Shown here: positions 5,506-34,615 of the stretch, in pieces
Layout of the letters: every line of letters starts with the position of its first letter
How positions within the stretch are numbered: the stretch's first letter is position 1
DNA from: Candidatus Woesebacteria bacterium
GTDB lineage: Bacteria; Patescibacteriota; Microgenomatia; UBA1400; UBA12028
NCBI GenBank assembly: GCA_040006915.1
Contig: JBDTWD010000002.1
Coordinates: forward strand, 42,613 to 106,612
DNA length: 64,000 bases
Reading direction: 5' to 3'
Notes under the pieces: model-generated
What the model was told of the DNA's origin: nothing
What the model saw: only the letters and a program-made list of their open reading frames with translations
The model's database searches: none
Program-made: the position numbers and the translations under genes

Positions 5506-5521
5506 ATAGTATAGGCTTTCT

Positions 5522-6541
5522 TTACTTCAATGAAGTTGGATACTGCATGTTTTTAGCTAACCAAGCCACAGTAGAGAATTGAACTCCAAGGGAAAGCAGT
5601 CTCGCGTTTTGTAACTGCTCTAAGCTCAATGGTTCTACACAGGTAGGATTAACACCGAGCCAATACCGTTTATCGATCCCTAAAGCTTCCAGCTCTGACT
5701 CTGTTGTGTCATGAATTCCGGCTGGAACGGCGAGCGGTAAAGCCGCATCTACCAACAGCACAGTCTTCTGTCCTCTTATGGCAGAGATTTTAGCTTCCTC
5801 TGCATCGCAGATATTCTCACACATACCGGCAATGAACTTTTTGGTACGACCATCGGCTATTTGGTCTTCTGTATATCCGGTACTCTCACCGGTTGTTAAT
5901 TGACTTAAAGCCCACTGCTCTGAGACCATTCCGGCACCCGGAGAAATGGTGTCTCCTTTTGCTGGCATGTCTTTTTTGGCTGGATGATATCGAAGTTCAT
6001 TAATAATCGCAGAGTCCATGGTAAAAGCGTTTCCATGTTCCATTGTGTAGGTCTTCATGGTTTGAGCCAAATCCAGTAATCGTTTGAAATCAGAGAGATC
6101 GAATCGTTGTGTCGCTATTTGATCTTCATCCCAATTGTCTAGATCTGCACGAGTAATGGTTTGAAACTGCATAGAACTTGCGTTTCTATATGAACTCGCC
6201 CAAGAGGGATTCCCTGGATGGTGAGCGTCTCTGGGCAAAATGGTCTGTACCAGACGAGTGGTTTTGGTACTCTCATTTGCTCGTGCAACCAAATTCAAAA
6301 GAAGGACACAGTGACGAATCGCATCTTCCATACCTGGATGTAACTTTGACATATCTTCAGGATCAAAGACAAAAAGACCGCCATCTTGATGGCAAAAAGC
6401 ATTGATCATATCTGCGATGTACACAACTGCATTCTTAGGATCAATCACACCTGGATCTATTTGAGGAATTTTCAAGGTATCGAATCGCCGATTCGGATTC
6501 TGATCTCCGTATACCAATACTTCTTGTTCCAAACTTCCCAT
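5522..6541 (-). CDS. Isochorismatase-family (cysteine hydrolase, PncA-like) protein with a large internal insertion
   Basis: N-terminal KNAVVYIADMINAF matches the isochorismatase xxVDMQNDF Asp motif. C-terminal GMCENICD...TVLLVDAALP resembles the catalytic Cys region. About 130 aa of extra sequence lie between them. It is 17 nt upstream of the SLOG gene on the same strand. Confidence 0.5.
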   Translation of the reverse strand: MGSLEQEVLVYGDQNPNRRFDTLKIPQIDPGVIDPKNAVVYIADMINAFCHQDGGLFVFDPEDMSKLHPGMEDAIRHCVLLLNLVARANESTKTTRLVQTILPRDAHHPGNPSWASSYRNASSMQFQTITRADLDNWDEDQIATQRFDLSDFKRLLDLAQTMKTYTMEHGNAFTMDSAIINELRYHPAKKDMPAKGDTISPGAGMVSEQWALSQLTTGESTGYTEDQIADGRTKKFIAGMCENICDAEEAKISAIRGQKTVLLVDAALPLAVPAGIHDTTESELEALGIDKRYWLGVNPTCVEPLSLEQLQNARLLSLGVQFSTVAWLAKNMQYPTSLK

Positions 6542-6625
6542 AGCTCTCCTTTTACCTGTTGGACTGGTATTTGCCTACAAAAAAAACCAGCCCGAAAGTA
6601 TTCCTTTCTCTGGCCGGTCGTAATT

Positions 6626-6671
6626 ACGGATATCTATTTTCCATTTGCCACGTTGTATACATGATATCCGT
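6626..6671. promoter_or_regulatory. 9-bp perfect inverted repeat ACGGATATC-N28-GATATCCGT in the divergent intergenic region between the isochorismatase-like/SLOG operon and the 831-aa gene
   Basis: Seen in the sequence. It overlaps a TTGACG -35-like hexamer on the minus strand. Candidate operator. Confidence 0.35.
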
Positions 6672-6757
6672 CAAGGCGTTGTTGAGATACACAAATAATA
6701 CGATACTCGAGACACTTTGTCAAGGTTTCTTGGCTCGATCTGATATACTATGTCCAT

Positions 6758-20329: not shown

Positions 20330-20887
20330 TCATTTGACACGTCCTTGTGCCAGTTCTCGCCAGCAAGCCTGACAGCACGCACCATACAGCTCTGCTCCCC
20401 CAATAACCAGATACTCATCCATTTTTTTCTTTCTATACGAATGTTTGGCAGGTTTTCCACACCCATCACAGATGGCCTGAAGGGAAAGAACAGAATCTGC
20501 TTTGGCAATCAGCGATAAAGTTGCCCCAAAAGGGTTTTTAGCAAAGTCATAGGAGAGACCGTACCCAAAAACTTCAATGTTTTTCGCACGAACCGCCTCG
20601 ATCTGAGGGGAAAGCGAATCGAAATCAAAAAAATTCAGTTCGTCAATAAAAATAGCTTGGGTATTACCAGCCAAAGAAGAAAGCAAATCGGGACAATCTT
20701 GATCGATAAGGATCGCGGGTATTTGTTCTCCAGTGTGTGATACGACCGCCTGTTTACTGTATCTCACATCAATCTTTGGTTTGAATATTCGGATTCTATC
20801 AGCTGGATAACGTGATGCAGCAGACAGCAACGCTGTAGTTTTCCCGGCAAACATCGGGCCCGTTACGATCATCAATTTACCAATCAT
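20330..20887 (-). CDS. tdk: Thymidine kinase
   Basis: IVTGPMFAGKTTALL P-loop, IFIDELNFF, and a C-terminal zinc ribbon CDGCGKPAKHS...CCQAC. Typical TK1-type. Confidence 0.95.
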   Translation of the reverse strand: MIGKLMIVTGPMFAGKTTALLSAASRYPADRIRIFKPKIDVRYSKQAVVSHTGEQIPAILIDQDCPDLLSSLAGNTQAIFIDELNFFDFDSLSPQIEAVRAKNIEVFGYGLSYDFAKNPFGATLSLIAKADSVLSLQAICDGCGKPAKHSYRKKKMDEYLVIGGAELYGACCQACWRELAQGRVK

Positions 20888-21194
20888 AAGATCCTGAATC
20901 TAGAGAGTCATGTACCGAAGTCGCAAGAATATAGCTTGCTGGTAAATCACCTAAATGAATACATTCTTTCTCTTTGTTTTTCGGGATATACACAAACATA
21001 TTATTTATGATAAATACACATCCAAAGTCTAAAGGGCGTGGTTTTTCTTCCTGGGGAAGAGAAACAATATGATCAATAATAGCTTGTTGTTGGTCAACGC
21101 TACACTTCGCAAACGCTATTCGTTGTTTATTGCTTTCTGTGTTCATTGATTTGGTCGCGTAATTTTTTCGCCTCTGCACCAGGATTTTGTGCAA
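20877..21194 (-). CDS. Small hypothetical protein (105 aa, or ~89 aa from an internal Met)
   Basis: Fills the 239-nt gap between pyrF and tdk. Overlaps the tdk start by 11 nt and the pyrF end. No motif. Confidence 0.3.
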   Translation of the reverse strand: MHKILVQRRKNYATKSMNTESNKQRIAFAKCSVDQQQAIIDHIVSLPQEEKPRPLDFGCVFIINNMFVYIPKNKEKECIHLGDLPASYILATSVHDSLDSGSYDW

Positions 21195-21954
21195 ATATCA
21201 CCGCTCGAGAAGAACTGATGATCATCCCCTCTGTTGCAGTATTCATTCCCGCTTTCACAGTTTTTTCTATATCCCCTCCCTGCGCCCCAATGCCAGGGAT
21301 CAAAAATGTCATATCTCCGACAATCTTTCGAATCACCTCTGATTCTTTTGGATACGTGGCACCAACGACCAACATGCAGTTATGGTTTGTGTTCCATTTT
21401 GCGCTAACGTGTTTTGCAACCACTTGCCACAGTGGTTCACCATCAATTCTCAAATCCTGGAATTCGGGAGCACCTGGATTTGAAGTTCGACACAAAATAA
21501 TACTGACTTTATCTTTTCGATCTAAAAATGGCTGGAGAGCTTCTTGTCCTAAATATGGATGCAACGTCACTGCATCAAACCCATACCAGTCAAAAATACT
21601 GGTCACGTACCCATCGTTGGTATTGCCGATATCAGCACGTTTGGCATCCAGAATAGTAAAAATATCTGGATGCTTGTCTTGCAAGTACTCCATAGTTATT
21701 TTTAACTCTTTTACTCCCTGGTCTCCTCTGGCCTCATAGAAAGCTGCATTCGGTTTGTAACTACTCACAAAGGTGTGGGTTTGTTCAATGAGCCATTGAT
21801 TAAAAGCAAATTGGGGATACGCTTCCGACAAAAAACGTTCAGGGATTTTTTTTACATCACTATCCAATCCGACGCAAAGAACTGAGTTCACTTTTCGGAT
21901 GCGATCATTCAATTTTTCTTGCCCATTCATAACGGCTACCCTTTCTTTTCTCAC
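21127..21954 (-). CDS. pyrF: Orotidine-5'-phosphate decarboxylase
   Basis: LCVGLDSD...ILDAKRADIGNT...ILCRTSNPG are OMP decarboxylase motifs. Confidence 0.9.
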   Translation of the reverse strand: MRKERVAVMNGQEKLNDRIRKVNSVLCVGLDSDVKKIPERFLSEAYPQFAFNQWLIEQTHTFVSSYKPNAAFYEARGDQGVKELKITMEYLQDKHPDIFTILDAKRADIGNTNDGYVTSIFDWYGFDAVTLHPYLGQEALQPFLDRKDKVSIILCRTSNPGAPEFQDLRIDGEPLWQVVAKHVSAKWNTNHNCMLVVGATYPKESEVIRKIVGDMTFLIPGIGAQGGDIEKTVKAGMNTATEGMIISSSRAVIFAQNPGAEAKKLRDQINEHRKQ

Positions 21955-21977
21955 TTCTACTATACTACCATCACTCT

Positions 21978-22769
21978 ATGCAAAATTTTCTCTGTGTGGG
22001 ATTTGCTACAGTCGATACCATAAATGGCAGACGTTTCCCTGGTGGAGCTGCTGGCGGAATGAGTATCAATAGCAAAAAACTAGGAATAAATAGCAGTTTG
22101 TTAGCGCCGCTCTCTTCCGACGAGCTGGGATTGTGGTACAGAAAGATACTAGAAGACAGAAATGTATCTTTGTCTTTGTGTGAATTTGACTCTCCGTCAA
22201 TCCCAACCTGTTTGATTACTGATGTCCATGCAGCCGGGTCGACGCGGGTATGGAAGGATAACGGAGCAGTCCAGTATCTAGAGACCATGAAAGTTCCTGA
22301 TTCTAAAGTATTAGAACAATTTGATGCCATACTCTTCTGTACTGCTATTCCCCCTTTGAGCACGTCTGTGAGTCTTCAAACCCCAAAAAGAAATCTGTTT
22401 GTTATTCCCGGAACGTATTGTCTATCGCATCCCGAGAGCATCAATCCTTCTATTTTGGAAAAAACGGAGATCATCTTTGGTAACGAAGAGGAAGCCTCTC
22501 CTATTTTTGCAAGCAAACCATTTCAGTATGGAGTACAACTTATTGTCATCACCGCCGGAAAAGATGGAGGCATCGTTTACAGCGCTTCTGGCAAAGAAAC
22601 TCCTTTTTTAGCGGCTACCAGCGAAGCTATCGATACAACAGGTGCAGGCGACTGTTTTGCCTTAGGATTTATCTCCTCCTGGACAAAATCCCATAGTATA
22701 GGAAAATCTATCGAAGCTGGAACCACTCTTGCCTCCCAAGTCATTCAAGTAGAGGGTGTTCTGCTGTAA
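21978..22769 (+). CDS. PfkB-family (ribokinase-like) sugar/nucleoside kinase
   Basis: C-terminal anion-hole motif DTTGAGDCFALGF together with a ribokinase-like N-terminus. Confidence 0.8.
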   Translation: MQNFLCVGFATVDTINGRRFPGGAAGGMSINSKKLGINSSLLAPLSSDELGLWYRKILEDRNVSLSLCEFDSPSIPTCLITDVHAAGSTRVWKDNGAVQYLETMKVPDSKVLEQFDAILFCTAIPPLSTSVSLQTPKRNLFVIPGTYCLSHPESINPSILEKTEIIFGNEEEASPIFASKPFQYGVQLIVITAGKDGGIVYSASGKETPFLAATSEAIDTTGAGDCFALGFISSWTKSHSIGKSIEAGTTLASQVIQVEGVLL

Positions 22770-22772
22770 GTT

Positions 22773-23513
22773 ATGTCGACCCGTTCTGAAACACCCACCT
22801 TCATTTTTGATATCGATCAAACCCTAGCTGGTGGCTTGATGCTTCTCCATCTTCAACACTACAACCGCAGTTTGAGTCTTGAGATGAGTGAAGCAGAAAT
22901 TCTAGAAGCATCACAGACCTACGCCAAAACGTTTGATGTTCCCCAAATCATCGACTACCGAAAAGAAAATGAAGAGAAATTCCAGAACGAGCGTGCATAC
23001 TTGCGCACCTCACCAGACTTGCATAGAGCCTTAGCTCCAATTGACGGAGCCAAAGCCGGAATAGATATGCTTTCCGCATATGCAAGCGATATTCGTTACT
23101 ACAGTGTTCGTCCACAAGAAGTGACGGAGGCTACCACCGATTGGCTACATGTGCATGCATTCATCAGCGCTGCAGAACTTGTTATTTGCGTTTCTCCTAA
23201 AGATAAACTTGAACGGGTGGTAGAGATCGCTACAAAAAAAGGAACCCAAGTCGTTTTAATTGATGACAGTTTGAAGGATCTTTTGAATGCTGCTGTAGAA
23301 CTCGCTGCCGAAGCTTCACCACTCGTCAATGACTTCTCACAGCTTACGCTCGTCGGTTTTGGCTACGATGATCCGGCTGTGCAAGAACTGCTTGCAAACC
23401 GAGGAGAAAGCATTGGAATCGAAGTGTGCGCACTCCCTTCCTGGGAGACTGGAGCCGTCATGGGCTTAATTGCAAAGCTGCAATTCGTCCCCATACCGGC
23501 TAAACGCAGCTAA
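22773..23513 (+). CDS. HAD-superfamily hydrolase (possible nucleotidase)
   Basis: Motif I FIFDIDQTL (DxDxT) and motif IV VVLIDDSLKD. Confidence 0.65.
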   Translation: MSTRSETPTFIFDIDQTLAGGLMLLHLQHYNRSLSLEMSEAEILEASQTYAKTFDVPQIIDYRKENEEKFQNERAYLRTSPDLHRALAPIDGAKAGIDMLSAYASDIRYYSVRPQEVTEATTDWLHVHAFISAAELVICVSPKDKLERVVEIATKKGTQVVLIDDSLKDLLNAAVELAAEASPLVNDFSQLTLVGFGYDDPAVQELLANRGESIGIEVCALPSWETGAVMGLIAKLQFVPIPAKRS

Positions 23514-23516
23514 TCG

Positions 23517-24158
23517 TTAGAATCCGTGTTTGGCAGCCCACCCGTGCGGATCCTCAAGCCATTCTTTGATTTTTGCGACTTCATCTTTCGTCACCAGTGA
23601 TCGTTTTAGGGCTTGTTCCAAAATGATGGGGAAAGTAGTTAAAGTCAAAAGTCGAACACCCTCGGTAGCAAACGCATCTTCAGCTTCTTTCCAACCATAG
23701 CTGGTGATAGCAAGACACGTATCGACAATCGCGCCAGCTTCTTTGAGTTCATGAACTCCGTGCAAACTTGAGCCAGCAGTCGTAATGTGATCTTCTAAAA
23801 CAGCGGCATGTAATCCTTTTACACTTCCACCTTCAATCTTCTTCTTGGTTCCATGATCTTTTGCAGCTTTTCTAATAATGACTGAAGGTATGCGCATCTC
23901 ATACCCTACAACAGAGCTATGTGGAATACCAGCAGTTTCAATTCCGGCCAAGACATCGATAATGACTTGTTTTTGTGCTATCAAATCTTGCAATCCTTCT
24001 ATCACAATTTTCCAAGCATCCACATGGAATGGAAGTTTCCGATTATCAACATATACTGGAGAAATAATTCCGGATTTAAAAGTAAGTGGCTTGTCTAAAG
24101 CAAATCCGACAGCGCTGATATCAAGTAACGCGTTTGCAACTTTTTCTTGGGTATTCAT
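23517..24158 (-). CDS. pyrE: Orotate phosphoribosyltransferase
   Basis: FKSGIISPVYVDNR...AGIETAGIP...AAVLEDHITTAGSS match the OPRTase motifs. Confidence 0.9.
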   Translation of the reverse strand: MNTQEKVANALLDISAVGFALDKPLTFKSGIISPVYVDNRKLPFHVDAWKIVIEGLQDLIAQKQVIIDVLAGIETAGIPHSSVVGYEMRIPSVIIRKAAKDHGTKKKIEGGSVKGLHAAVLEDHITTAGSSLHGVHELKEAGAIVDTCLAITSYGWKEAEDAFATEGVRLLTLTTFPIILEQALKRSLVTKDEVAKIKEWLEDPHGWAAKHGF

Positions 24159-24179
24159 ACCTCATCCTTTCCAATGTAA

Positions 24180-24929
24180 TTATAAAGGTCTCGTTTGCAT
24201 TTCTTCTTCTATAGTACACAATGTTTCCTGTACAGACTGAAACGTCCGTTTTTGCTGTAATCCTACAGGATATAAAAATGACATATAGCGCTCTTGTATA
24301 TGAGCCTGTGTACAGTTCTTTAAAAAGAAAGCATACATCCGCACCCAGAAGCTGCTGATAAACTCAGACAGTTCTTGGCTGGTGAAAATAAGAGTTGTAT
24401 CATCTTGTAAAAGTTGATCTGGAGTAAAGGAAAGATAATCTGAAAGAGTAGTTCTCTTGGTATCTACACTCACGTTGTACATATCTTCCAAATCAACTTG
24501 ATATAAACGATTATCTTTACGAGAAAGCATGGCATTCGTCATTCTGCGGTCTTCTAGAAGAATGCCAAACCGCTCATACAAATACCGCATCTGGTCGAAA
24601 CTCTGTTGCGTAAGTGCGAGAAACTCTAGTGGAGAAACCATTCCCTTTTCAACAAGCTCCGAAATTGTATCTCCTTGAATTTTTTCTAGGGTGACTTCTC
24701 CTTTGGTTTTCGTAGCATGAAATAATTCGTCATCGGGAATGATAAGTTGAGGAACAAAGTCACACAGAAGTCCTAAAATAATATGATTCTTGACTCGTTG
24801 ATATGGTGGATGTCCCGCATAGTGTTCATGAAGAGAATATGAATTGGGAGGTTGCTTCAACTTGGCTGGATCGGCCTTAAAATGATAAATTGAATCTTCG
24901 TTCCATCGTGAATTTGTCCAGATTTCCAT
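24180..24929 (-). CDS. Hypothetical protein (249 aa) inside the pyr operon, between pyrD and pyrE
   Basis: Clean ORF with 8-21 nt spacers to its neighbours. It is not PyrK, as it lacks any Fe-S or FAD motif. ILLEDRR...NRLYQVDLEDM weakly resembles a kinase-like catalytic segment. Confidence 0.5.
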   Translation of the reverse strand: MEIWTNSRWNEDSIYHFKADPAKLKQPPNSYSLHEHYAGHPPYQRVKNHIILGLLCDFVPQLIIPDDELFHATKTKGEVTLEKIQGDTISELVEKGMVSPLEFLALTQQSFDQMRYLYERFGILLEDRRMTNAMLSRKDNRLYQVDLEDMYNVSVDTKRTTLSDYLSFTPDQLLQDDTTLIFTSQELSEFISSFWVRMYAFFLKNCTQAHIQERYMSFLYPVGLQQKRTFQSVQETLCTIEEEMQTRPL

Positions 24930-24937
24930 AATAATAA

Positions 24938-25972
24938 TTAACTATTTTTCCAATGCATAGCTAAATGTGGATTGGCAAACACTCCCACTGCTGACTGCAC
25001 GGCATCCACTCCAAGTGCTAGATACTGATCGATATGCTCGGGCTTAGTAACTCCGCCAATTCCAATGATGACAAAATTTTCCATTTCCAGTTCCTGGGAA
25101 AATTTGACCGCATTTTTCGCCTGTTTCAAAGATAAACCACGGACTGCACTTCCTGATACTCCTGCAGTTGGCCGATTGGGAAAAGCTTCTTTCCCATCTT
25201 TGGTAACTATACTCATTGAGTATGTATTGGTCGAAGAGATTCCAGAGATGATTCCTTTTGCTTGTTTTAGAAAAGTCTTTAACGCTTGCTGATTTTGATA
25301 ATATCCAACTTTGACTAACAACTGTTTGTCTCCGATAATATTTTTTACCTCTCCACATAGCCTGAGTGAGATCTCGATATCTTCATAGATCAATCCTTGT
25401 CCCCCATCGGTATTGGGACAAGCTAAATTCAGTTCAAAAATATGAGCAGTGGTCTCATTGGCAAGCAGCGCTAATCGTTTGGCATCCTCTATTAGGCTCT
25501 CACCTGGTTGTGGAGTACACATCAGTGACAGGATCAGTAGTTTCCCTTCAGGTAATTTAGCAACACAAGTTCCCACATCTTCTTGCCAATATTCTGGTTT
25601 AACGGATTGAATCCCAAAACTATTGGCCATCGTAGTCGTTTCAGCCGTATCAAAAGGAGTAAAACTGGCTTGCGCTTTGGGTAGAACGCTTGGATCAGAA
25701 AACTCTCCCTTTATATCAACATACTGCCAATGAGGGAACGCATTCCCACGCCACTCCAATGAACGTACACTTTTATAGGTAAAAATATCGTATCCAAGCG
25801 TACTCAAAAAAAGGATAAATCGAGAATTAACAGTGAGCGGACAGGCTGCAACGCCGAAAGGCGAATGAATGTTAAAACCTAAAAAAGTACGATGAAGATT
25901 AGCTTTGTCGGTATTCCAAAATGGACCGTAGGCAATGTTTTCCTCAAACGTTTTCGTAATGTCATACAACAT
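24938..25972 (-). CDS. pyrD: Dihydroorotate dehydrogenase (class 1-like, soluble)
   Basis: LNLACPNTDGG active-site region and FVIIGIGGV FMN-binding end. Lies in the pyr operon between pyrC and pyrE. Confidence 0.85.
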   Translation of the reverse strand: MLYDITKTFEENIAYGPFWNTDKANLHRTFLGFNIHSPFGVAACPLTVNSRFILFLSTLGYDIFTYKSVRSLEWRGNAFPHWQYVDIKGEFSDPSVLPKAQASFTPFDTAETTTMANSFGIQSVKPEYWQEDVGTCVAKLPEGKLLILSLMCTPQPGESLIEDAKRLALLANETTAHIFELNLACPNTDGGQGLIYEDIEISLRLCGEVKNIIGDKQLLVKVGYYQNQQALKTFLKQAKGIISGISSTNTYSMSIVTKDGKEAFPNRPTAGVSGSAVRGLSLKQAKNAVKFSQELEMENFVIIGIGGVTKPEHIDQYLALGVDAVQSAVGVFANPHLAMHWKNS

Positions 25973-25997
25973 AGGCCTTATTTCTGTTTAAGACGCA

Positions 25998-27023
25998 TCA
26001 ACTGTCGATGACTACTTTTCCCTTATAAACGACTTTTTGTAAAGAGCCAGGCAATTTCCATCCATCAAATGGTGACCAGCCGCACTTGCTCTCATATCCC
26101 TTCTCCCCCACTCTCCACGTCTTTGACATATCTACTTCAATATACGTTTTTGGTTGAGTTGGGATCTTAAAAATCTTCTTGGGATTGGTATAGAGGATAG
26201 TTTTCACTTTCGAGAGTGGAATACGTTTTTCTTGTACTCCTTTGAGAATCAATCCTAAGGCAGTCTCTAAACCTGGTACCCCAAATGGTGGTTTTTCTGA
26301 TTTCTTTTCAGAAAGCGTATGTGGAGCATGATCTGTTTCTACAATATCGATTGTCCCATCACGCAACCCCTGCCAAAGTGCCGCTTGATCTTGAGACGTG
26401 CCCAAGGGGGGTTTCATCATCGCTAAACTTCCTTTGGTTTTTACATCATCAATAGTCATCCATAAATGATGCGGACACACTCCTGCAGTGATTTTTTGTT
26501 TCATTTTTTTTGCTCGTCTGACCAATTCCACTTCTATCGCTTGACTGATATGACAGACATGTAAGCGTCTTCCATAGACATGGGCAAGACCTATAGCAGC
26601 AGCTAGTTCTATCCCTTCTGCATGCACCAAAATCGGCTTTGAACTTTTCCAAGCCTCAAACACCTTCTCCAATAGTTCTAGGTCCTCTAAGAGCATTTCT
26701 CCGGTCGTGTGATTGCAGTACAGCTTTAGGCCAAACACATTAGGATTGTTCCATACTTTGGAAAATTGATCGGTGTTTTTGCCGTTGGTACCAAAATGAA
26801 ATCCAATATCCATTTTAGCAATTTTTTTACTTCGTTTGATTTTATCCTCGAGCGCCTGTTTACTAATTGTTGGCGTCGGATTGTTTGGCATGTCAATAAT
26901 AAAAGTAAATCCACCTGCTAGAGCCGCCATACTCCCACTTTCAAAATCCTCTTTATGGGTGGCTCCTGGATCGCGTAAATGCACGTGAACATCAATTAAG
27001 CCGGGAAGACGAAACTTTTTCAT
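25998..27023 (-). CDS. pyrC: Dihydroorotase
   Basis: GLIDVHVHLRDPG metal-binding HxH, and VETDHAPH. Amidohydrolase fold. Confidence 0.9.
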   Translation of the reverse strand: MKKFRLPGLIDVHVHLRDPGATHKEDFESGSMAALAGGFTFIIDMPNNPTPTISKQALEDKIKRSKKIAKMDIGFHFGTNGKNTDQFSKVWNNPNVFGLKLYCNHTTGEMLLEDLELLEKVFEAWKSSKPILVHAEGIELAAAIGLAHVYGRRLHVCHISQAIEVELVRRAKKMKQKITAGVCPHHLWMTIDDVKTKGSLAMMKPPLGTSQDQAALWQGLRDGTIDIVETDHAPHTLSEKKSEKPPFGVPGLETALGLILKGVQEKRIPLSKVKTILYTNPKKIFKIPTQPKTYIEVDMSKTWRVGEKGYESKCGWSPFDGWKLPGSLQKVVYKGKVVIDS

Positions 27024-27040
27024 AGAATCTCTTTCTGTAG

Positions 27041-27979
27041 TTAGATATCTTTTTTTAATACCAAAGCCAACAACGCCATACGCACGTACATGCCGTTTTT
27101 CATTTGTTCACTAATATACAAGGCGCGTTTGTCTGTATCAACTTCTGGCGAAATTTCCCCCACTCTGGGAAGGGGATGCATGATAATCGACTTCTTTTTC
27201 AAATCTCGAAGTAAAGTCGGGGTGATGACGTAATGATGTTTTAATTTCTCATACGTATCTAAATCCGAAAACCGTTCTTTTTGAACTCGGGTTACATACA
27301 ACACATCCGTGGTTGGCAATACTTCTTCGAGTCTATCGCCTTCAAAAAGAGAGACTCCTTTTTTTTGAATCATTTTTTTTAAACTGTCAGGCAGCCTTAA
27401 AATGTCAGGGGAAATAAAGTTGTAATGAATCTTTGGATACAGTGACAGTAATTTGGAAAGCGAATGAATTGTTCGTCCATTGAGCAAATCTCCAACCATG
27501 GTGACATGAAGACCATCAATTTTGGAGAAATTGTTTTGAATGGTAAAAAAATCTAACAGTGCTTGAGTTGGATGCTCTCCCACTCCATCTCCGGCATTGA
27601 TCAATGGTTTGACCATAGAATCAGCCGCAATTTTTGCTGATCCTACTTCTGGATGACGCAAGACCACAACATCAGAATAACTTTCAAAGGTTCGCACCGT
27701 GTCTGCTAACGTCTCGCCTTTCGTCACTGATGAAAACTGTACGCCTTGAATGGGTATGATTCCTCCCCCTAGTCTTTGCATGGCACTGATAAATGAGGCA
27801 TAGGTTCGACTCGACGGCTCGTAAAACAGCGCAGTCATGAGCTTCCCTTTTAAGAGATCGCTACTCCCTTTCTTCTCTACAATCTTCTGCATTTTCCTCG
27901 CTATCTTCATTACCAAATCAACTGTTTTCTTATCAAATTGTTCTGCCGTTAGAATATCCTCACCAAAAAGAGCATTCAT
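27041..27979 (-). CDS. pyrB: Aspartate carbamoyltransferase catalytic subunit
   Basis: FYEPSSRTYASF (STRT motif), HPTQALLD (HPxQ), and a HPLPRV-like C-terminus. Confidence 0.95.
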   Translation of the reverse strand: MNALFGEDILTAEQFDKKTVDLVMKIARKMQKIVEKKGSSDLLKGKLMTALFYEPSSRTYASFISAMQRLGGGIIPIQGVQFSSVTKGETLADTVRTFESYSDVVVLRHPEVGSAKIAADSMVKPLINAGDGVGEHPTQALLDFFTIQNNFSKIDGLHVTMVGDLLNGRTIHSLSKLLSLYPKIHYNFISPDILRLPDSLKKMIQKKGVSLFEGDRLEEVLPTTDVLYVTRVQKERFSDLDTYEKLKHHYVITPTLLRDLKKKSIIMHPLPRVGEISPEVDTDKRALYISEQMKNGMYVRMALLALVLKKDI

Positions 27980-28257
27980 AATGTAATCGGATAATACCCG
28001 GTTAAGGTTTTCAGACAGAGTTCTTTGGTTTGTTTATAAATGAAAACATTCTCGCGAAAGAAGGGCGGTGTTCCTCGGCAAAATCGAATGTCATGCGTAC
28101 AGAGTACCTGCCACATCGCTTCAGATATTGGTTCCCAAGGACTGCGAACCTCAGTTCTCTGCACAACCTTTATTTCAGGTTCATCATCATTGCGTCGCCA
28201 ATCATGTTCAATCATAGAATTACTCCGTTCCAAAATATCGGTCTCCATAATCTCCAA
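27976..28257 (-). CDS. Small ORF (93 aa) in the 240-nt upp-pyrB spacer. It could instead be an untranslated leader.
   Basis: Overlaps the pyrB start by 4 nt and the upp end by 38 nt. No motif. Confidence 0.25.
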   Translation of the reverse strand: MEIMETDILERSNSMIEHDWRRNDDEPEIKVVQRTEVRSPWEPISEAMWQVLCTHDIRFCRGTPPFFRENVFIYKQTKELCLKTLTGYYPITL

Positions 28258-28858
28258 GACCAGGGACTATATATTTTTTGTCATTTAGGTGAGAATCGAG
28301 GGCTGCAAGAAAGATCTTAATCTCCGGAAATTCACTATGAATAGCCTGTACTCCTTCGGGTGCTCCAATCACACAAACAACTCGGATCTCTTTGGGATTT
28401 TCGGTACTCAAGCGTCGAAGCAAATGGAGGATTGACCCACCAGTCGCAAGCATTGGGTCGGTAACAATCACGACACTGTGATCATCAATCTCTGGAAGTT
28501 TCCAATAATATTCACTCGCAATTGCGGTTTTTTCATCACGTGCCATACCAACAAATCCGATTGTAGACTTAGGCAATAACTTCATCGCTCCAGGCAGCAT
28601 CGCCAGTCCAGAGCGTAATACCGGAATTATGACTACTTCATCAACTAGTTTCTTTGTGGTCATTTTTTCTAATGGAGTTTCAATTTCAACATCCTTCATC
28701 GCCAAATTTTGGATTGCACTAATAAATAGTTGTTCACAGATCTTATCCGAATGATGACGAAACTTTTGAATCTCTGTGCGTTTATCACGCAAGTGACTCA
28801 AAGAGTCTGTTATCAGAGGGTTGTTATCAACAATGTAGAGGTTCTCCATGTTATTCAT
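28220..28858 (-). CDS. upp: Uracil phosphoribosyltransferase
   Basis: IIPVLRSGLAM, VTDPMLATGGS and IVPGLGDYGDRYFGT align with Upp and not with PyrR. Confidence 0.9.
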   Translation of the reverse strand: MNNMENLYIVDNNPLITDSLSHLRDKRTEIQKFRHHSDKICEQLFISAIQNLAMKDVEIETPLEKMTTKKLVDEVVIIPVLRSGLAMLPGAMKLLPKSTIGFVGMARDEKTAIASEYYWKLPEIDDHSVVIVTDPMLATGGSILHLLRRLSTENPKEIRVVCVIGAPEGVQAIHSEFPEIKIFLAALDSHLNDKKYIVPGLGDYGDRYFGTE

Positions 28859-28887
28859 AGTGAGTATGGTTTATAGATAAAAATGGG

Positions 28888-28909
28888 CAAAAAAAATCCC
28901 CGATGTGGG
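28888..28909 (-). terminator. Intrinsic-terminator-like hairpin CCCCACAUCGGGG followed by a U9 run on the minus strand, only ~30 nt upstream of the upp start. Candidate attenuator.
   Basis: GC stem of 4 bp with a 5-nt loop plus T9, read from the sequence. Its position between the tmk-operon end and the upp-pyrBCDE start suggests attenuation. Confidence 0.45.
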
Positions 28910-29052
28910 GAGTAACAAGAAAAAAACCAAGAATTTGGTTTTTGTATTTGAGGATAATAGTCAAAAAAAAACTAGTGGTAGGCACTAGAATAGTACTATA
29001 CAGATAGGTATATGTGAGACGCAAGCAGCAATTTGTTTCGTATCTGTGAAAA

Positions 29053-29076
29053 GGGACAGATATTTATCTCTGTCCC
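29053..29076 (-). terminator. Rho-independent terminator of the fic-tmk operon (8-bp stem GGGACAGA / TCTGTCCC, 8-nt loop, followed by TTTTC on the minus strand)
   Basis: Perfect 8-bp stem lying 13 nt downstream of the last minus-strand ORF. Confidence 0.5.
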
Positions 29077-29088
29077 TCCTCTTCTAGC

Positions 29089-29322
29089 CTATGTCGGATA
29101 TACTTTGTAGATTACCGTCATGGTTTCGAGAATTCGTCGGTGATCTCCAGCACTTGTAGTATGTACGGAAAGAACATGAACGCCAAAACCTTTTTGACTG
29201 AGTGACTGCACCCACTTTTCATATTTGTCACTTAGTGGAGGTTCTGAGTTCTCAACGTATCCTGAACCAGGATACGTTGTCGAACTGAACACTGCCAACA
29301 GATTCACATTTAGTTGAGCCAT
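29089..29322 (-). CDS. Small hypothetical protein (77 aa), last gene of the fic-tmk operon
   Basis: Followed 13 nt downstream by a stem-loop terminator. Confidence 0.35.
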   Translation of the reverse strand: MAQLNVNLLAVFSSTTYPGSGYVENSEPPLSDKYEKWVQSLSQKGFGVHVLSVHTTSAGDHRRILETMTVIYKVYPT

Positions 29323-29363
29323 GGAGACTTATTACACAAGAAATTGAAGTAAAACGTCTATTT

Positions 29364-29690
29364 TTACTTATTATGTCCAGTGAAGCTTCCGTGCACTTTG
29401 GCAAACTGGAGTGGCTTTCCCTGTGCAGTGAGATTGATCGCTTGTCGGACATCGGACGAAGTTGCCCCGTGTTTCCATCGTAGCCAACCATATTTATCCA
29501 TGAGTTTCTCAGTGTTTGTATCATATTGTTCATCACTGAGAGATTCGAGCAAGAGCTGATTTAAAAATCCCCGAAGAAGAAATGCCGTAGCCAGAAATTC
29601 TTGCTCCGACACATCCTTGGGGCGAAATTCTTTTACTCTTTGAGTGAAATCACTGAGTGAAATTAAACGAGAGCTTTCAGCTTCTGTCAT
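29364..29690 (-). CDS. Hypothetical protein (108 aa)
   Basis: Starts 9 nt after the tmk stop on the same strand. Confidence 0.4.
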   Translation of the reverse strand: MTEAESSRLISLSDFTQRVKEFRPKDVSEQEFLATAFLLRGFLNQLLLESLSDEQYDTNTEKLMDKYGWLRWKHGATSSDVRQAINLTAQGKPLQFAKVHGSFTGHNK

Positions 29691-29699
29691 ACAATCTCC

Positions 29700-30326
29700 T
29701 TACAACAGTTGTTTTTGTACAGATTTCCAAATTTCTTTCTCCACGTCGGCCAAATCCTTATTCGCATCAATAAGTACCCAGCGATCATGATCATTGACTT
29801 TGGCAAGCGACAAGTACGCTTGTCGCACATCTTCATGGAAACTCATGTTTTCCATTTCCATGCGATTTGACCCACCCGCGGCAGCTTGTCGTCCAAGTCC
29901 CGTTTTGGCATCGACATCTAAAAGTAAAGTCAAATCAGGATACGTATCTTTGGTAGAAATTTTGTTCAGTTCATCAATGAGCTCTACCCCAAACTTACGG
30001 ACCATTCCTTGATAGACCACAGAGCTATCACGAGTTCGATCCATTAACACCATTTTGTGGGCTTCAAGACTCGGGAGAACTAACTCTCGGTAGACTTGCG
30101 CTCTAGCTGCTTGAAACAAAAGTACTTCTGTTGTGTACGCAATCCCAATGTTTTTTGCCGATAAAACCACCTCTCGAATTTGCTCAGAAATCACGGTTCC
30201 CCCTGGTTCGCGAACGACAACCACATCAAATCCTTCTTTGGAAAGACGATCACGAAGCCGTACGATTTGCGTCGACTTCCCCGCACCTTCTCCACCTTCA
30301 AATGAGATCAGATATCCGTGTTTCAT
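29700..30326 (-). CDS. tmk: Thymidylate kinase
   Basis: ISFEGGEGAGKSTQ P-loop, VVVVREPGGT, DRTRDSSVVYQG (DR motif). Length 208 aa. Confidence 0.95.
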   Translation of the reverse strand: MKHGYLISFEGGEGAGKSTQIVRLRDRLSKEGFDVVVVREPGGTVISEQIREVVLSAKNIGIAYTTEVLLFQAARAQVYRELVLPSLEAHKMVLMDRTRDSSVVYQGMVRKFGVELIDELNKISTKDTYPDLTLLLDVDAKTGLGRQAAAGGSNRMEMENMSFHEDVRQAYLSLAKVNDHDRWVLIDANKDLADVEKEIWKSVQKQLL

Positions 30327-30357: not shown

Positions 30358-30651
30358 TCACTGTACTCGTATCATTCCAAACTGGGGATGATTTTCCGCC
30401 GAAAGTTTTTCGCAACTATTTTTCTGTACTCTCCAGCCTCCAAGCTCAATTTGAGATACATCGCCAAGTCCGGCTTCTGGGGATAATTGGGCAAGCTGTG
30501 CAAAGAAAATCCTTCCATACGCCATAATTGAAGCTTCTTGTTGTCCCATTTGAAATTCCATTTCACTCGAGCAGAATACACGCAAATTCTTCAGTGTTTG
30601 CTGCGTTGCAGTGTCTGGGATTGATGAGATAGCAATAACACGTTCATTCAT
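30358..30651 (-). CDS. Hypothetical protein (97 aa)
   Basis: Clean ORF 31 nt upstream of tmk. Confidence 0.4.
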   Translation of the reverse strand: MNERVIAISSIPDTATQQTLKNLRVFCSSEMEFQMGQQEASIMAYGRIFFAQLAQLSPEAGLGDVSQIELGGWRVQKNSCEKLSAENHPQFGMIRVQ

Positions 30652-30708: not shown

Positions 30709-31002
30709 TCACTTCTTTCCATACTGCTCGGTGATGAAAGCTTTCATTCGTTCATGAACTGGCTTATTCATAATTGAGTCTTTCGGTAGAGAGGCAGTTC
30801 CCTGAGGAGCGCTAACTGATTGGTTCAGTTTAGCTGCCTCATTCCCGGCATACTGACTTGGGGTGTTCGCAAACGTATTCGGATCTAGATTCTTGATGGC
30901 AAAAGGTCGAAGTTCTTCACCATCCGGCAGTGGGTTGGCTTTAATTTTTTCTTGTAACTTCTGACGGAATTGACCTGGAACAAACTTTGACATATTTTTC
31001 AT
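30709..31002 (-). CDS. Hypothetical protein (~97 aa) immediately downstream of fic
   Basis: I placed the start at the internal Met just after the fic stop, because the ORF-track version overlaps fic by 50 nt. No anti-Fic SxxxE(G/N) motif is present. Confidence 0.4.
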   Translation of the reverse strand: MKNMSKFVPGQFRQKLQEKIKANPLPDGEELRPFAIKNLDPNTFANTPSQYAGNEAAKLNQSVSAPQGTASLPKDSIMNKPVHERMKAFITEQYGKK

Positions 31003-31006
31003 TCTA

Positions 31007-32014
31007 CTATTTTTGACTACCATTTGCAGAATACCGTACCCCTCTAGTATTCCCATGTTTCATAACGAGTCCGAGTTTTCCCAATGCCTGGATATCATAT
31101 GCCAGAGTACGTACAGGAATTTTTGGGAAACGCCTGGCAATAAAGTCAAAGGAACACAATGGATGATCTGTAATAATGGCAACGATTTCACTCCTCCTGG
31201 GTAAGAGGCTTGAGAGTGGTTTTGATCCCACACTCACACTTTCTTCTCCCACCGTTTTGATATCGGTCAGAATGTGCTCGAGAGCCCACACATATCCTTC
31301 CAACACAAACAGAGTGAACTCTTCTGCATGTCTCGTTGAACGCTCTAAGTATGCATAATATGCCGACTTATGTTCATCAAAGTACTCATCGACCGGTAAA
31401 ATGAATTTTCCAAAGAGCTTACTTTGTTTGAGCTGCCATTGAAGGAGAATCCGTCCGGTTCGTCCATTCCCATCCAAGAACGGATGCATTTTTTCGAAAT
31501 AGTAGTGAAGTCTGGCACTATCAACTATATGTTCTATAAAATCCCGCTCCTTATTGGTCTCGGTCAGCCATACGTCGAGCATAGCTTTGAGCGTATTTCG
31601 ATCAGGAGTCAAATACACCACATTTCCACCACTGTCAAAGACTCCTGACTGCTCTTGCCGTATTTTTCCAGCATCTGCATGAATACCATTCATGACAATC
31701 GCATGGATTCGCTTCAAATGTTCAATCGTAAGGGTGGTGGAGAACGTCTCAAGTTCTTGAATCGCACGATTACAGTTCTCGATTTCTCTTTTTTGAATAT
31801 CCTGTCCACTTCCCTTCTCATAGTCAGAAAAAGTCAGTTGATTCCCTTCAATACGCGCCGAGAAGAGTGAGCTTTTGAGGATCTGGCGATGAAAGATTCT
31901 TTGTGCGACCGTGGCTGAAACCGGAATAGACTCTAACACTTTAGAAAGAAACCTGATTCTTTCCAGATTTGAGGCAACAAGCGTGTTGGAAACAGGATAG
32001 GGAAATTGCAACAT
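31007..32014 (-). CDS. fic: Fic/Doc-family protein (class II Fic, intramolecular inhibitory helix) with a C-terminal winged-HTH-like region
   Basis: Canonical active-site motif HPFLDGNGRTGR. N-terminal inhibitory motif SARIEGN fits [S/T]xxxE[G/N]. Confidence 0.9.
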   Translation of the reverse strand: MLQFPYPVSNTLVASNLERIRFLSKVLESIPVSATVAQRIFHRQILKSSLFSARIEGNQLTFSDYEKGSGQDIQKREIENCNRAIQELETFSTTLTIEHLKRIHAIVMNGIHADAGKIRQEQSGVFDSGGNVVYLTPDRNTLKAMLDVWLTETNKERDFIEHIVDSARLHYYFEKMHPFLDGNGRTGRILLQWQLKQSKLFGKFILPVDEYFDEHKSAYYAYLERSTRHAEEFTLFVLEGYVWALEHILTDIKTVGEESVSVGSKPLSSLLPRRSEIVAIITDHPLCSFDFIARRFPKIPVRTLAYDIQALGKLGLVMKHGNTRGVRYSANGSQK

Positions 32015-32053
32015 TGCCTAATATTGCAAGATATTGCTAAATATTGCAAGATG
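32003..32053. promoter_or_regulatory. Three phased copies of an ATTGCAA(GAT) motif (32004, 32023, 32044; about 20-bp spacing) immediately upstream of the fic start
   Basis: Direct repeats aaTATTGCAAGAT x2 plus ATTGCAAcATTGCC, read from the sequence. TTGCAA is self-complementary. Candidate operator array. Confidence 0.4.
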
Positions 32054-32125
32054 CTGCCGGATGCTCGAGCGAAAGAAAGTCACATATGGAGAAGAACAAA
32101 GGAGAAAACTCTGCAAAATAAGTTC

Positions 32126-33688
32126 CTATGCTGGATCTTGTTCGTACGGAGTTCCATTCTTGAGCGCATCTTCGGCTTTTTGCAGTTCTAGTCCCACATA
32201 CATCATATGTCCAGGAATACCGGAATAGTTCCAGTCGGAGATCTGCCAGGCAACCTCCTGAGCAACTCGTCCTTCAAAGATTTTCATTGCCGGCCCCCCA
32301 TTGGGTTCAAAAATCGTGGCTCGGATCATTCGGTCGTTCGTTTTAGGCAACTTGCGTAACATTCGCTCTACTGCCATCGGAACGGCTTGTGTCTCGTACC
32401 GCTTTGACCATACATCCCACATTTGTGCGTCACTTTGTTTAATCACTTCAACGACGACATTTCCTCGGGGATCAAATTCGAAGTGAACCTGAGGGGTATA
32501 CCCAAGCTCTCCTTCGTAATGCTTCATGAGAAGGTCATCGACCAAACCGAAATCGTCTGCATACATATGAGCACTATGGGTGATCATGGTTAAAGGCCCC
32601 ATCTGCATTCCAGCACTATCTGCAATATCTTTTTGCAATTTACGTAACGCAAATGTATTTCGCGGCCAGCCATGCACCATATCTTGGCTTCTGAAATGAC
32701 AAGTGAAGAAGAATTTATCGTCTTGAACAGAGCCTAATACCATGGTCAGACACGGCGTATCGCCTTTATTTGCCTCTGCCCAATCACGAACCGGATTAAT
32801 TGTAATTGCGACCATTTTTTTACTGTCTGGCCGATTTTTGAGCAATTTTTTAATTTCATCAATTTGGTTCACGCCTAAATCTTCACGTAAACGTTTACCG
32901 TAGTTATACGCTACCCCAGGGATTTGTCGCGCGGTCATCATTTCTGCGTAGTAGGCTTCAAGCTCAAAGCGTGCAAACGGTAAATATTCTGGGAAATAGA
33001 TATCTTCAGGATTTTCATCAGTAATGACTGCGGTTAAATTCAACACTTCCTTCAAACTATTATCTTTACTGTATCGTGTATGTTTGGGTCTGCCATACTT
33101 TGATATCTCATTTAAAAGTTTAAGCCAGGTCTTTGCAACTTTGGGTGATGAGACACGAAAGCCTGTCTGTTCACTCGGTAACAACTGTACTTTCGGTTCG
33201 CTTCTCGGGAATTCACGACGACGCTTGGCGAATGGTTCAATAGTTTTTTCAGAGAGCTCACGAGCTTTGGCGATAAAATCTGCACCACTCTTGCCCCGAC
33301 AATCAACGACGGCAACCATTTCAGCGAATTCTTTCAAGATTTCATCCGGAAGTTCGGCTTCAATCTCTCCTCTAGCGCCAACGATTCGACGATTCTCATC
33401 CACTCCTTTTTCCACCAACATTTTAAGGGCTTGTCCTGATTGACTCATCTCTGCTCCCCAAATCAAGATTACACGAATGTGAGGATTCGCAAAGATATTA
33501 CGAATCATGGCATTGATCCCTTGCGCAGAATACAAATTACCAATCGTGTTGTACTCCACATCCTTTAGCAACCCCTCAACGGCTTGTCGCTCAGTCCAGA
33601 GGCAGCAAATAGCGAGATGATGTTTAGGATTTTTGACTTTGAGAACGTCTTTATAAAAGAGGGGCCAATTTTTTACATCAATGGGCAT
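32126..33688 (-). CDS. Extended thymidylate-synthase-fold protein (ThyA/dCMP-hydroxymethylase superfamily), 520 aa with large extra segments
   Basis: NQIDEIKKLLKNRPDSKKMVAITINP resembles DQLxxVIxxIKxNPxxRRxIxxAWNP. TPCLTMVLGSV resembles the catalytic PCH..QFYV block. FRSQDMVHGWPRNTFALRKL resembles YQRSxDxxLGVPFNIASYALL. The protein is about twice normal TS length. Confidence 0.6.
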   Translation of the reverse strand: MPIDVKNWPLFYKDVLKVKNPKHHLAICCLWTERQAVEGLLKDVEYNTIGNLYSAQGINAMIRNIFANPHIRVILIWGAEMSQSGQALKMLVEKGVDENRRIVGARGEIEAELPDEILKEFAEMVAVVDCRGKSGADFIAKARELSEKTIEPFAKRRREFPRSEPKVQLLPSEQTGFRVSSPKVAKTWLKLLNEISKYGRPKHTRYSKDNSLKEVLNLTAVITDENPEDIYFPEYLPFARFELEAYYAEMMTARQIPGVAYNYGKRLREDLGVNQIDEIKKLLKNRPDSKKMVAITINPVRDWAEANKGDTPCLTMVLGSVQDDKFFFTCHFRSQDMVHGWPRNTFALRKLQKDIADSAGMQMGPLTMITHSAHMYADDFGLVDDLLMKHYEGELGYTPQVHFEFDPRGNVVVEVIKQSDAQMWDVWSKRYETQAVPMAVERMLRKLPKTNDRMIRATIFEPNGGPAMKIFEGRVAQEVAWQISDWNYSGIPGHMMYVGLELQKAEDALKNGTPYEQDPA

Positions 33689-33732
33689 AGAAGAATTTTC
33701 TACAAATTAGGATTGCCTGTACACAAGAGGTG

Positions 33733-33761
33733 AACATAGCAAACCCAAAGACAAGTTGCAA
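33733..33761 (-). promoter_or_regulatory. Candidate minus-strand promoter for the TS-like gene: TTGCAA, a 17-nt spacer, then TATGTT
   Basis: Hexamers read on the reverse complement. They lie about 45-70 nt upstream of the 33688 start. Confidence 0.3.
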
Positions 33762-33842
33762 GCAGAGAGAAAGATTGAAATATAAATTTCTATGTTATTT
33801 CCGTTTTATCGATGTTTCTTTTAAATGTTCAAGGCCTATATC

Positions 33843-33871
33843 ATTGATTACACTTCCATTTTAGGATATAA
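33843..33871 (+). promoter_or_regulatory. Near-consensus sigma70-type promoter: TTGATT, a 17-nt spacer, then TATAAT
   Basis: Hexamers and spacing read directly from the sequence. They lie about 150 nt upstream of the 34026 gene in a 337-nt AT-rich intergenic region. Confidence 0.55.
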
Positions 33872-33958
33872 TATTCCTCTTGTTTACCGAAACTTCCTCC
33901 ATCACGGAAGAATGATTTTGTTCTCAAGATCGCTCTTTTACTTTGCTCCCATTTTTTA

Positions 33959-33999
33959 GGATTACATTCAGTCTCAATTCCTGAGGTTGAATGTAGTCC
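33959..33999. promoter_or_regulatory. Imperfect 12-bp inverted repeat GGATTACATTCA-N17-TGAATGTAGTCC, 30-60 nt upstream of the 34026 start
   Basis: 11 of 12 positions are complementary. Located downstream of the consensus promoter, at a typical operator position. Confidence 0.35.
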
Positions 34000-34025
34000 T
34001 AAAACACATTATGAGGAGAAGAATC

Positions 34026-34520
34026 ATGCCTGAAAAAACTGAATACGGGTTCACTGACGAGCAATTTTCGGCGGTGATAAGTCTCATAGCCATTCTCGAT
34101 CGTCCAATGCAACTGAGGCCAGTCCTCCGCTGGTTGCCTCTCTTAACAGTGAGTCAACAAGTCACGTTCCTGCGAGGGTGCGGCGAACTCCTGAGAAAAG
34201 TCCAACCGGGGATACGAACGGATCAATCTCAGAATGAACCGCGAGTACAAAAGCTCAGTTTTGCTGAGCCATTGAAAGAACTGCTGCGGCAGGTACTATC
34301 GTTTGATCAACTCGCCCATGTTTGGATAGTGATCAAAACACGAACTGGAGAAGAATTTCTAGAGACTGAACGTATTTTTGTTGACGCGGTAGAACGTGAG
34401 ATTCTAGTTTCATCAACTGGAGAACAAGTTGATCTGTTCGTGGCATTCGCAATTGAAACGAAATCCGAGGTGCTTATCAGTTGCGTGGCAGATGCAATTG
34501 CAGTCTGGATTGGCGAATAG
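34026..34520 (+). CDS. Hypothetical protein (~165 aa)
   Basis: ATG at 34026 follows a GAGGAG Shine-Dalgarno 7 nt upstream. The ORF-track TTG start at 33987 is probably an over-extension. Confidence 0.5.
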   Translation: MPEKTEYGFTDEQFSAVISLIAILDRPMQLRPVLRWLPLLTVSQQVTFLRGCGELLRKVQPGIRTDQSQNEPRVQKLSFAEPLKELLRQVLSFDQLAHVWIVIKTRTGEEFLETERIFVDAVEREILVSSTGEQVDLFVAFAIETKSEVLISCVADAIAVWIGE

Positions 34521-34615
34521 CATTGCTAGGCAGGACAAATTTCAAAGTAAAAGAGAAAAGCGTCTTTCCATATGGAGAGGCGCTTTTTTCGTAGTCCACT
34601 TTCTATAGATAAGAT

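Follow-up and report, generated by a model that had tools for sequence, protein, structure and literature searches.

By one published estimate, about 80% of the Fic family belongs to class II, whose control is described there as almost entirely obscure (PMC9755527). One of them, CccR of Yersinia pseudotuberculosis (7XUX), represses its own promoter by means of a helix-turn-helix (HTH) at its C-terminus, as shown by lacZ fusion, electrophoretic mobility shift, DNase footprinting and isothermal titration calorimetry experiments. Its crystal structure shows S59 and E63 of the SARIEG motif bound to R203 of the catalytic motif, and its operator consists of two inverted 10-bp boxes near -35 and -10, AGATAATCAT-N26-ATGATAATCT, which are bound by a back-to-back dimer (PMC9755527). 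The SoFic dimer of Shewanella oneidensis binds specifically less than 100 bp upstream of its own start codon; autoregulation has been suggested for it (bioRxiv 10.64898/2026.07.09.737422). CbFic2 of Coxiella burnetii (8CIL) carries a DeoR-like winged helix-turn-helix (wHTH) and is regulated by DNA binding (PMC10628234). Here we describe a fic gene in a 64,000-nt stretch of Candidatus Woesebacteria DNA (contig JBDTWD010000002.1; the whole stretch is called the window below), together with a phased array of short repeats that covers the fic start codon. We propose that the array is an operator through which Fic represses its own gene.

The Fic protein and its C-terminal winged helix

The fic gene (31007..32014, minus strand) encodes a 335-aa class II Fic protein of the AMPylase type. 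The product matched the Pfam family Fic (PF02661) with an E-value of 3.6e-18 and 66.6 bits against a cut-off of 24, and the identical protein at NCBI is named "Fic family protein" of Candidatus Woesebacteria bacterium. Its family comprises about 1800 homologues, mostly from uncultivated Patescibacteria. The catalytic motif, H177PFLDGNGRTGR188 (31451..31486, minus strand), was read from the sequence; it fits the Fic/Fido pattern HxFx(D/E)GNGRxxR and showed no change in an alignment of 32 homologues with 36-63% identity. An inhibitory-helix motif of the form (S/T)xxxE(G/N), S52-A-R-I-E-G57, was read at 31844..31861 (minus strand). S52, E56, G57 and N58 were invariant in the same alignment, and the motif falls on a helix predicted at residues 34-55 by AlphaFold2 (AF2). 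SARIEG is part of the Fic polypeptide itself and precedes the catalytic core on its N-terminal side, which places the protein in class II. The motif is identical to S59ARIEG of CccR, and by this analogy its glutamate would obstruct the binding of ATP in the active site.

In class I toxin-antitoxin pairs (FicT/FicA, VbhT/VbhA), the inhibitory motif is found on a separate small antitoxin, whereas this Fic carries the motif itself. The motif was absent from three of the small open reading frames (ORFs) downstream of fic, orfA, orfB and orfC. A fourth, orfD, contains SGYVEN at residue 20, 1.7 kb away; we rejected it as a class I antitoxin, as the match is at chance level (estimated at ~6% per ORF of this size), is not conserved and lies in an orphan ORF. 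These results agree with the initial annotation, a description made from the sequence without database searches, in its account of an intact catalytic motif and of an auto-inhibited class II enzyme with no separate antitoxin.

The C-terminal winged-helix DNA-binding domain (31019..31207, minus strand) was assigned from AF2 models and fold matches. In the alignment of 32 homologues, the last 65 residues were as conserved as the catalytic core, with the consensus LLPRRxEIxxIIxDHPxxSFDxIARRFxxIPxRTLxYDxxxLxKxxLVxKHGxTRGxxYS. The AF2 model of the whole protein had a predicted local distance difference test score (pLDDT) of 91, and the C-terminal domain modelled by itself had a pLDDT of 89.5. Its fold contains three helices (residues 272-283, 289-294 and 301-313) and a beta-hairpin (strands 317-320 and 327-330). 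The top PDB fold matches of the whole model were full-length Fic-wHTH proteins, namely 7cb8, 7xux (CccR), 4rgl, SoFic and 8cil (the Coxiella Fic2), and the isolated domain resembled the DNA-binding domains of Fur/Mur, BlaI/MecI, ArsR/SmtB, MarR and IclR, with template modelling scores of 0.7-0.8. Pfam did not detect the C-terminal domain of Fic (best match HTH_20, E 0.18), so the winged-helix assignment rests on structure prediction. Proteins of the CccR type also require dimerization through an N-terminal helix for DNA binding, and AF2 predicted an N-terminal helix at residues 14-29.

The protein therefore resembles CccR in its class, its identical SARIEG motif, its C-terminal HTH and a full-length Foldseek match (E 5e-12), but the two share only 21% identity. 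CccR is an effector secreted by a type VI secretion system and AMPylates FtsZ. Among proteins of solved structure, SoFic (PDB 3EQX, 3ZEC), also of class II with a wHTH, matched best by sequence (E 1.2e-14); the identity in the fold alignment was 17-19%, however, and the target of SoFic is EF-Tu. Against the NCBIfam equivalog of SoFic (NF046030), the protein scored 68.6 bits, far below the cut-off of 550, and it is therefore not a SoFic orthologue. CbFic2 is likewise a class II protein and matched over the full length of the fold. It differs in being a host-directed effector that modifies histone H3, and in that DNA sets its balance between AMPylase and deAMPylase activity rather than transcription (PMC10628234).

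A phased repeat array at the start of fic

Six units of the type GCAAnAT form an array at 32003..32057 on the minus strand, with a period of 10 bp and a final step of 8 bp, which is probably an operator. On the gene strand, from 32057 down to 32003, the array reads GCAGCAT-ctt-GCAATAT-tta-GCAATAT-ctt-GCAATAT-tag-GCAATGT-t-GCAATTT. The units are GCAGCAT at 32051-57, GCAATAT at 32041-47, 32031-37 and 32021-27, GCAATGT at 32011-17 and GCAATTT at 32003-09. The fic start codon ATG (32012..32014) lies inside the fifth unit (GCA-ATG-T), and an in-frame TAG stands two codons upstream of it. The array thus covers the last ~45 bp ahead of fic and its first ~12 bp. Tandem Repeats Finder reported a tandem repeat of period 10 at 32021-32052. 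Self-identity at a lag of 10 bp was 0.72 in a 50-bp stretch of the array, the highest value in the 64 kb (window mean 0.254, standard deviation 0.07). Three or more GCAA at exact 10-bp spacing occurred nowhere else in the window, where shuffled sequences led us to expect 0.005 occurrences. A three-unit position weight matrix, built from 103 units, scored 41.7 at the array and 5.4 at the runner-up site beyond it.

The initial annotation had described three copies of a self-complementary ATTGCAA core about 20 bp apart. These copies are present on the plus strand at 32005, 32023 and 32043, but they are part of a longer pattern of six units with a 10-bp period that runs over the ATG. Across the window, the ATTGCAA heptamer itself occurred 18 times, which is no enrichment over the 18.3 expected. 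Self-complementarity holds for the TTGCAA present in some units; the conserved core GCAAnAT is asymmetric. As the units are 10 bp apart, they lie roughly on one face of the helix. Like the CccR-type autoregulators, the locus has repeated putative recognition boxes in its own promoter region, but the layout differs: the inverted pair of CccR is replaced by four to seven tandem direct GCAAnAT units at 10-bp spacing that enter the coding sequence. Winged helices of the OmpR/PhoB type bind head to tail along a single face of the DNA, on direct repeats with a spacing of ~10-11 bp and often as several adjacent pairs. These are effector domains of response regulators from another winged-helix subfamily, and their likeness to the fic array lies in site geometry only.

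We then asked whether the repeats are kept in orthologous promoters. Loci with fic were gathered by exact-protein look-ups and by a peptide-derived DNA pattern that is independent of the upstream sequence; one further locus (L006) came from a genome scan. The DNA pattern, a degenerate one for HYYFEK[IM]HPF, yielded 27 loci from metagenomes, where a scan with a single Fic protein as query had given no match. The array was found directly upstream of fic in all 28 non-redundant relatives (35-63% identity), which represent at least seven gene neighbourhoods. When 21 non-redundant regions upstream of fic were averaged, self-identity reached 0.51, 0.50 and 0.42 at lags of 10, 20 and 30 bp, compared with ~0.25 at the other lags, and the lag peak was visible in each of the 21. 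Cut in register, these regions contained three to seven units each, with the consensus nTn-G(96%)C(87%)A(94%)A(92%)T(64%)A(88%)T(96%), and the orientation of the units relative to fic was uniform across loci. In most relatives the register is GCAAG|ATGTT GCAAT, so that the AT of the start codon is the conserved AT of one unit. Arrays were also carried by seven additional loci (38-49% identity). The array of locus L114 consists of seven ATCTTGCAAY units with a lag-10 identity of 0.90; in this locus and in L089 the array stops 20-25 nt short of the ATG. Intergenic DNA that evolves neutrally would be randomized between loci whose proteins share 35-48% identity.

A scan of genome contigs with the family alignment used over-general peptides (HPFxDGNGR), and the matches listed were mostly distant Fic proteins with 23-31% identity. 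Among these listed matches, the distant fic genes from other phyla showed no 10-bp array above background (median maximum 0.42, compared with 0.40 in controls). Since the nearer relatives have the array and the distant fic genes listed do not, it is conserved within a single subfamily, most of whose members are from Patescibacteria. The suggestion in the initial annotation that the repeats form a multi-site operator is thus supported, and it is strengthened by the conservation in 28 non-redundant loci. Some loci showed a 20-bp super-period, in which CTT and TAA spacers alternate and self-identity at lag 20 equals or exceeds that at lag 10. It was not seen across loci when the arrays were cut in register, and we make no claim for it as a general feature.

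The genes upstream of fic vary among loci and include the thyA-like gene, a 103-aa ORF, pfkB, secA, lon, rarA (in both orientations), deoC (divergent), another fic and ORFs of no known function. The array therefore accompanies fic and not the neighbours of fic. No conserved partner or regulator gene was found beside fic across the loci; the recurring clusters were shadow ORFs within fic, or rarA-like genes in 4 loci. In ~400 kb of scanned loci, the array was nearly confined to fic.

To examine which part of the protein could read the array, we listed the recognition helix, which starts with R302-T-L-x-Y-D, for 120 homologues and then fetched loci that lack Arg302. The loss of the GC core from these loci was predicted beforehand, and the non-Arg set was partly chosen as a test of this prediction. 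GC was the majority core in 20 of the 22 loci with Arg302, and the two exceptions, which were mis-anchored, likewise begin with GC. None of the six loci with Ser, Lys or His at this position had a GC majority. Locus L118, a member of the main clade with an independent R-to-H change, had GTAA and ATAA cores, and C[CT]AA cores were found in L113 (Lys) and in L116, L119, L120 and L121 (Ser). Arginine-guanine is the commonest base-specific contact in protein-DNA complexes, and the direction of the core change therefore makes sense. A second pairing, of Tyr306 or His with T or A at position 5 of the core, seemed to emerge from L086, L094 and L095; it was contradicted by L097, and we rejected it.

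Proposed autoregulation by Fic and its alternatives

Since CccR represses itself, SoFic binds upstream of its own gene and CbFic2 binds DNA, we propose negative autoregulation: the winged helix of Fic would place the protein on the array, and fic would thereby be repressed. We put the probability of this reading at about 0.65. We infer Fic as the binder: several molecules, a presumed stoichiometry, would sit on the GCAAnAT units by way of the recognition helix R302-T-L-x-Y-D, and Arg302 would recognize the G:C pairs in the core. Once bound, Fic would occlude the start region and the promoter, which is presumed to lie there, and repression of fic transcription would be the outcome. Such negative feedback would keep scarce an enzyme that is potentially toxic when deregulated, and the SARIEG helix would restrain its AMPylase-type catalytic site.

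Several points weigh against this proposal. A consensus scan called no sigma-70-type promoter in the array, so the overlap of promoter and array is an inference. The association between residue 302 and the core gave a Fisher p of 7e-5 with the loci treated as independent and phylogeny ignored, and the co-variation stems from a small number of independent events, at least two. In three loci (L002, L005 and L113), only 39-43 bp separate fic from the upstream gene, and the array takes up this whole gap; fic may therefore be co-transcribed with that gene, in which case repression would have to act as a roadblock or by occlusion of the start. Two-fold symmetric dimers such as those of CccR and SoFic bind inverted repeats. 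By this comparison, tandem direct repeats would need head-to-tail or other asymmetric binding, a mode that would be new for Fic-wHTH proteins. Finally, CbFic2 binds DNA without known sequence specificity (PMC10628234).

Other explanations of the array were considered. The DNA might mainly control the enzyme, the phased sites serving as a template for Fic oligomerization and as a switch between AMPylating and deAMPylating forms, with any transcriptional effect secondary. CbFic2 dimerizes on DNA via its wHTH and turns from AMPylase to deAMPylase (PMC10628234), the activity of SoFic depends on dimerization (bioRxiv 10.64898/2026.07.09.737422), and four to seven adjoining sites would raise the local protein concentration. 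A single chromosomal site holds few molecules, however, the effect of DNA on CbFic2 requires no specific sequence, and the strict position of the array over the fic start points to gene control; we regard this explanation, which is compatible with autorepression, as unlikely. It is quite unlikely that the array is the operator of a separately encoded regulator, of the Crp/Fnr or another HTH type, and that the winged helix of Fic does something else. The initial annotation had recommended a search for such a regulator. Binding of Fic to the array is itself a prediction, and other HTH proteins are encoded in the small genomes of the candidate phyla radiation. Nevertheless, Fic has its own winged helix, the ORFs up to ~10 kb from fic in the window gave no Pfam match to a domain of the regulator type, and the array tracks fic through at least seven unrelated neighbourhoods without a conserved partner gene. 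Moreover, the array is all but absent from the other promoters in the ~400 kb, and the core shifts when the recognition helix of Fic shifts.

The repeats could also act without any protein of this kind, as curved DNA formed by phased AT-rich tracts or as stacked weak promoters. The AATAT tracts with 10-bp phasing would suit curved DNA, TTGCAA is similar to a -35 element, TGcAATATT looks like an extended -10 element, and TTGCAA-N17-CAATAT can be read as a weak promoter. This explanation is very unlikely, given that the best conserved positions are G (96%) and C (87%) and not the AT tract, that the core varies together with a protein residue, that the consensus scan called no promoter within the array and that such arrays are missing from the other genes of these genomes. 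We give least credence, and very little of it, to an element in the mRNA, in which repeated GCAAUAU around the AUG would be bound by protein or folded and would control translation. In its favour, the array encloses the ATG and no Shine-Dalgarno sequence precedes fic, but an Rfam search gave no family, there was no excess folding (z = -0.48), and Fic carries a DNA-binding fold. In addition, tmk, upp and the thyA-like gene have no Shine-Dalgarno sequence either, and the arrays of L114 and L089 end before the ATG is reached. For these last two reasons, we also dropped the argument that the missing Shine-Dalgarno sequence of fic points to a leaderless mRNA.

Within the proposed autoregulation, a further possibility, which we consider doubtful, is that in this Patescibacteria subfamily Fic molecules join head to tail into a short filament along four to seven phased sites, the fic start codon among them. 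One element would then both sense the Fic concentration, leading to autorepression, and template the oligomeric state that sets AMPylase against deAMPylase activity, and Fic might control other genes via copies of the array elsewhere, such as the second copy in L006. In this reading, the pairing of Arg302 with G:C would be a simple, re-programmable recognition code for Fic-wHTH proteins.

That second copy lies at L006:6340-6385, 1.6 kb downstream of fic, and shares ~31 identical bases with the fic array (GGATTAGGCAATATTCGGCAAGATTAGGCAA). A gene with a phosphoenolpyruvate-utilizer domain (5245-6288, minus strand) and a 2-hydroxyacid-dehydrogenase fusion (6419-8128, plus strand) flank this copy, which occupies their divergent promoter region. 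It may have arisen by a recent duplication, or it may be one more target of the Fic-wHTH protein. Two paralogues were also noted. A distant 350-aa paralogue in L116 (5110-6162, minus strand; 24% identity) combines Fic with a MarR/TrmB-type winged helix and is convergent with ftsZ; right before its ATG (6163-6210) it has a different 10-bp array of its own, CCTTATATAA CCTTATATAA TCTTATATAG. In L114, a 301-aa Fic paralogue without a recognizable HTH is encoded just upstream of the subfamily fic, and it is preceded at 8900-9006 by two copies of an inverted repeat, AATTCACGyC-N13-GrCGTGAAT, which represents another style of operator.

Gene neighbourhood and significance

On the minus strand, fic belongs to a co-directional run of the thyA-like gene, fic, orfA, orfB, tmk, orfC and orfD. 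The thyA-like gene (32126..33688) encodes a 520-aa fusion of MtrA-like, thymidylate-synthase-like and pterin-binding parts, as judged by Pfam and NCBIfam, and no terminator was predicted in the 111-bp gap between it and fic. After fic come orfA (30709..31002; 97 aa; codon score +0.158), whose ATG at 31002 lies 4 nt past the fic stop, and orfB (30358..30651; 97 aa; GGAGGTG ribosome-binding site; weakly positive codon score, +0.084). They are followed by tmk for thymidylate kinase (29700..30326; Pfam Thymidylate_kin, E 6e-42), orfC (29364..29690; 108 aa; AAGGAG site; codon score +0.134) and orfD (29089..29322; 77 aa; weakly positive codon score, +0.107). Two terminator-like hairpins, found at 28972-28988 and 28897-28911 by a terminator scan of this strand, probably end the run ahead of upp. 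The description of a seven-gene operon headed by fic and ending in tmk therefore needs correction: counted from fic, tmk is the fourth of six genes, and orfC and orfD follow it.

The small ORFs had been described as four orphans, which is true of two of them. Neither orfB nor orfD matched anything but itself among 5.8 billion (5.8e9) proteins, and their coding status is uncertain. Relatives of orfA with 49-54% identity were found in L002, L005 and L117, each just upstream of tmk, and orfA keeps this place even where fic is elsewhere or is cut off by a convergent signal-peptidase gene. On this comparative evidence, orfA is a real conserved gene for a small protein. Since it adjoins tmk on the upstream side in four related genomes, orfA may be a partner of tmk. 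Its C-terminus, LPKxSIMNKPVHERMKAFxxxQYGKK, is strongly conserved, and no family could be assigned. A 108-aa ORF after tmk in L005 is related to orfC (37% identity over the full length); this makes orfC conserved in one syntenic relative.

Linkage of fic and tmk was confined to four related genomes. L002, L005 and L117 share the thyA-like/tmk neighbourhood, with a convergent gene between fic and tmk in L002 and fic upstream of the thymidylate-synthase-like gene in L117; in most loci, fic was nowhere near tmk. In the window, a pyrimidine cluster at 20330-30326, mostly on the minus strand, contains tdk, pyrF, pfkB (plus strand), pyrD, pyrC, pyrB, upp and tmk, with the thyA-like gene further on. 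The same pyrimidine genes were found in other orders in L002, L005 and L117. Related genomes have fic at different positions, and most members of the family have it elsewhere; it seems to be a lineage-specific guest of this cluster. This corrects the idea of a functional tie between Fic and thymidylate kinase.

L002 and L005 encode versions of the thyA-like protein with 82% identity, and L117 has one as well. The protein of the window scored 137 bits against the methanogen-type thymidylate-synthase domain TIGR03283, below the cut-off of 174.55, and contains the pterin-binding DUF4346; the fusion may be an unusual thymidylate synthase with a built-in module for binding the C1 carrier. Between topA and this gene, the sole ORF in 927 bp of the window (33689-34615) is a plus-strand ORF of 177 aa (33987-34520) with a TTG start and no family match. 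L002 and L117 have an ORF of ~230 aa and pfkB at this position, and no trace of either was seen there in the window.

Autoregulation of a class II Fic protein by its fused winged helix has been demonstrated once, for CccR, and suggested once, for SoFic, and this locus extends the idea. What appears to be new is the layout of the putative operator, tandem direct repeats that extend into the gene itself. For a family with about 1800 members, this provides a clear and readily spotted signature of a putative operator. Its natural variants predict which residue reads which base, and the array provides defined probes and a route to further target genes in uncultured genomes.

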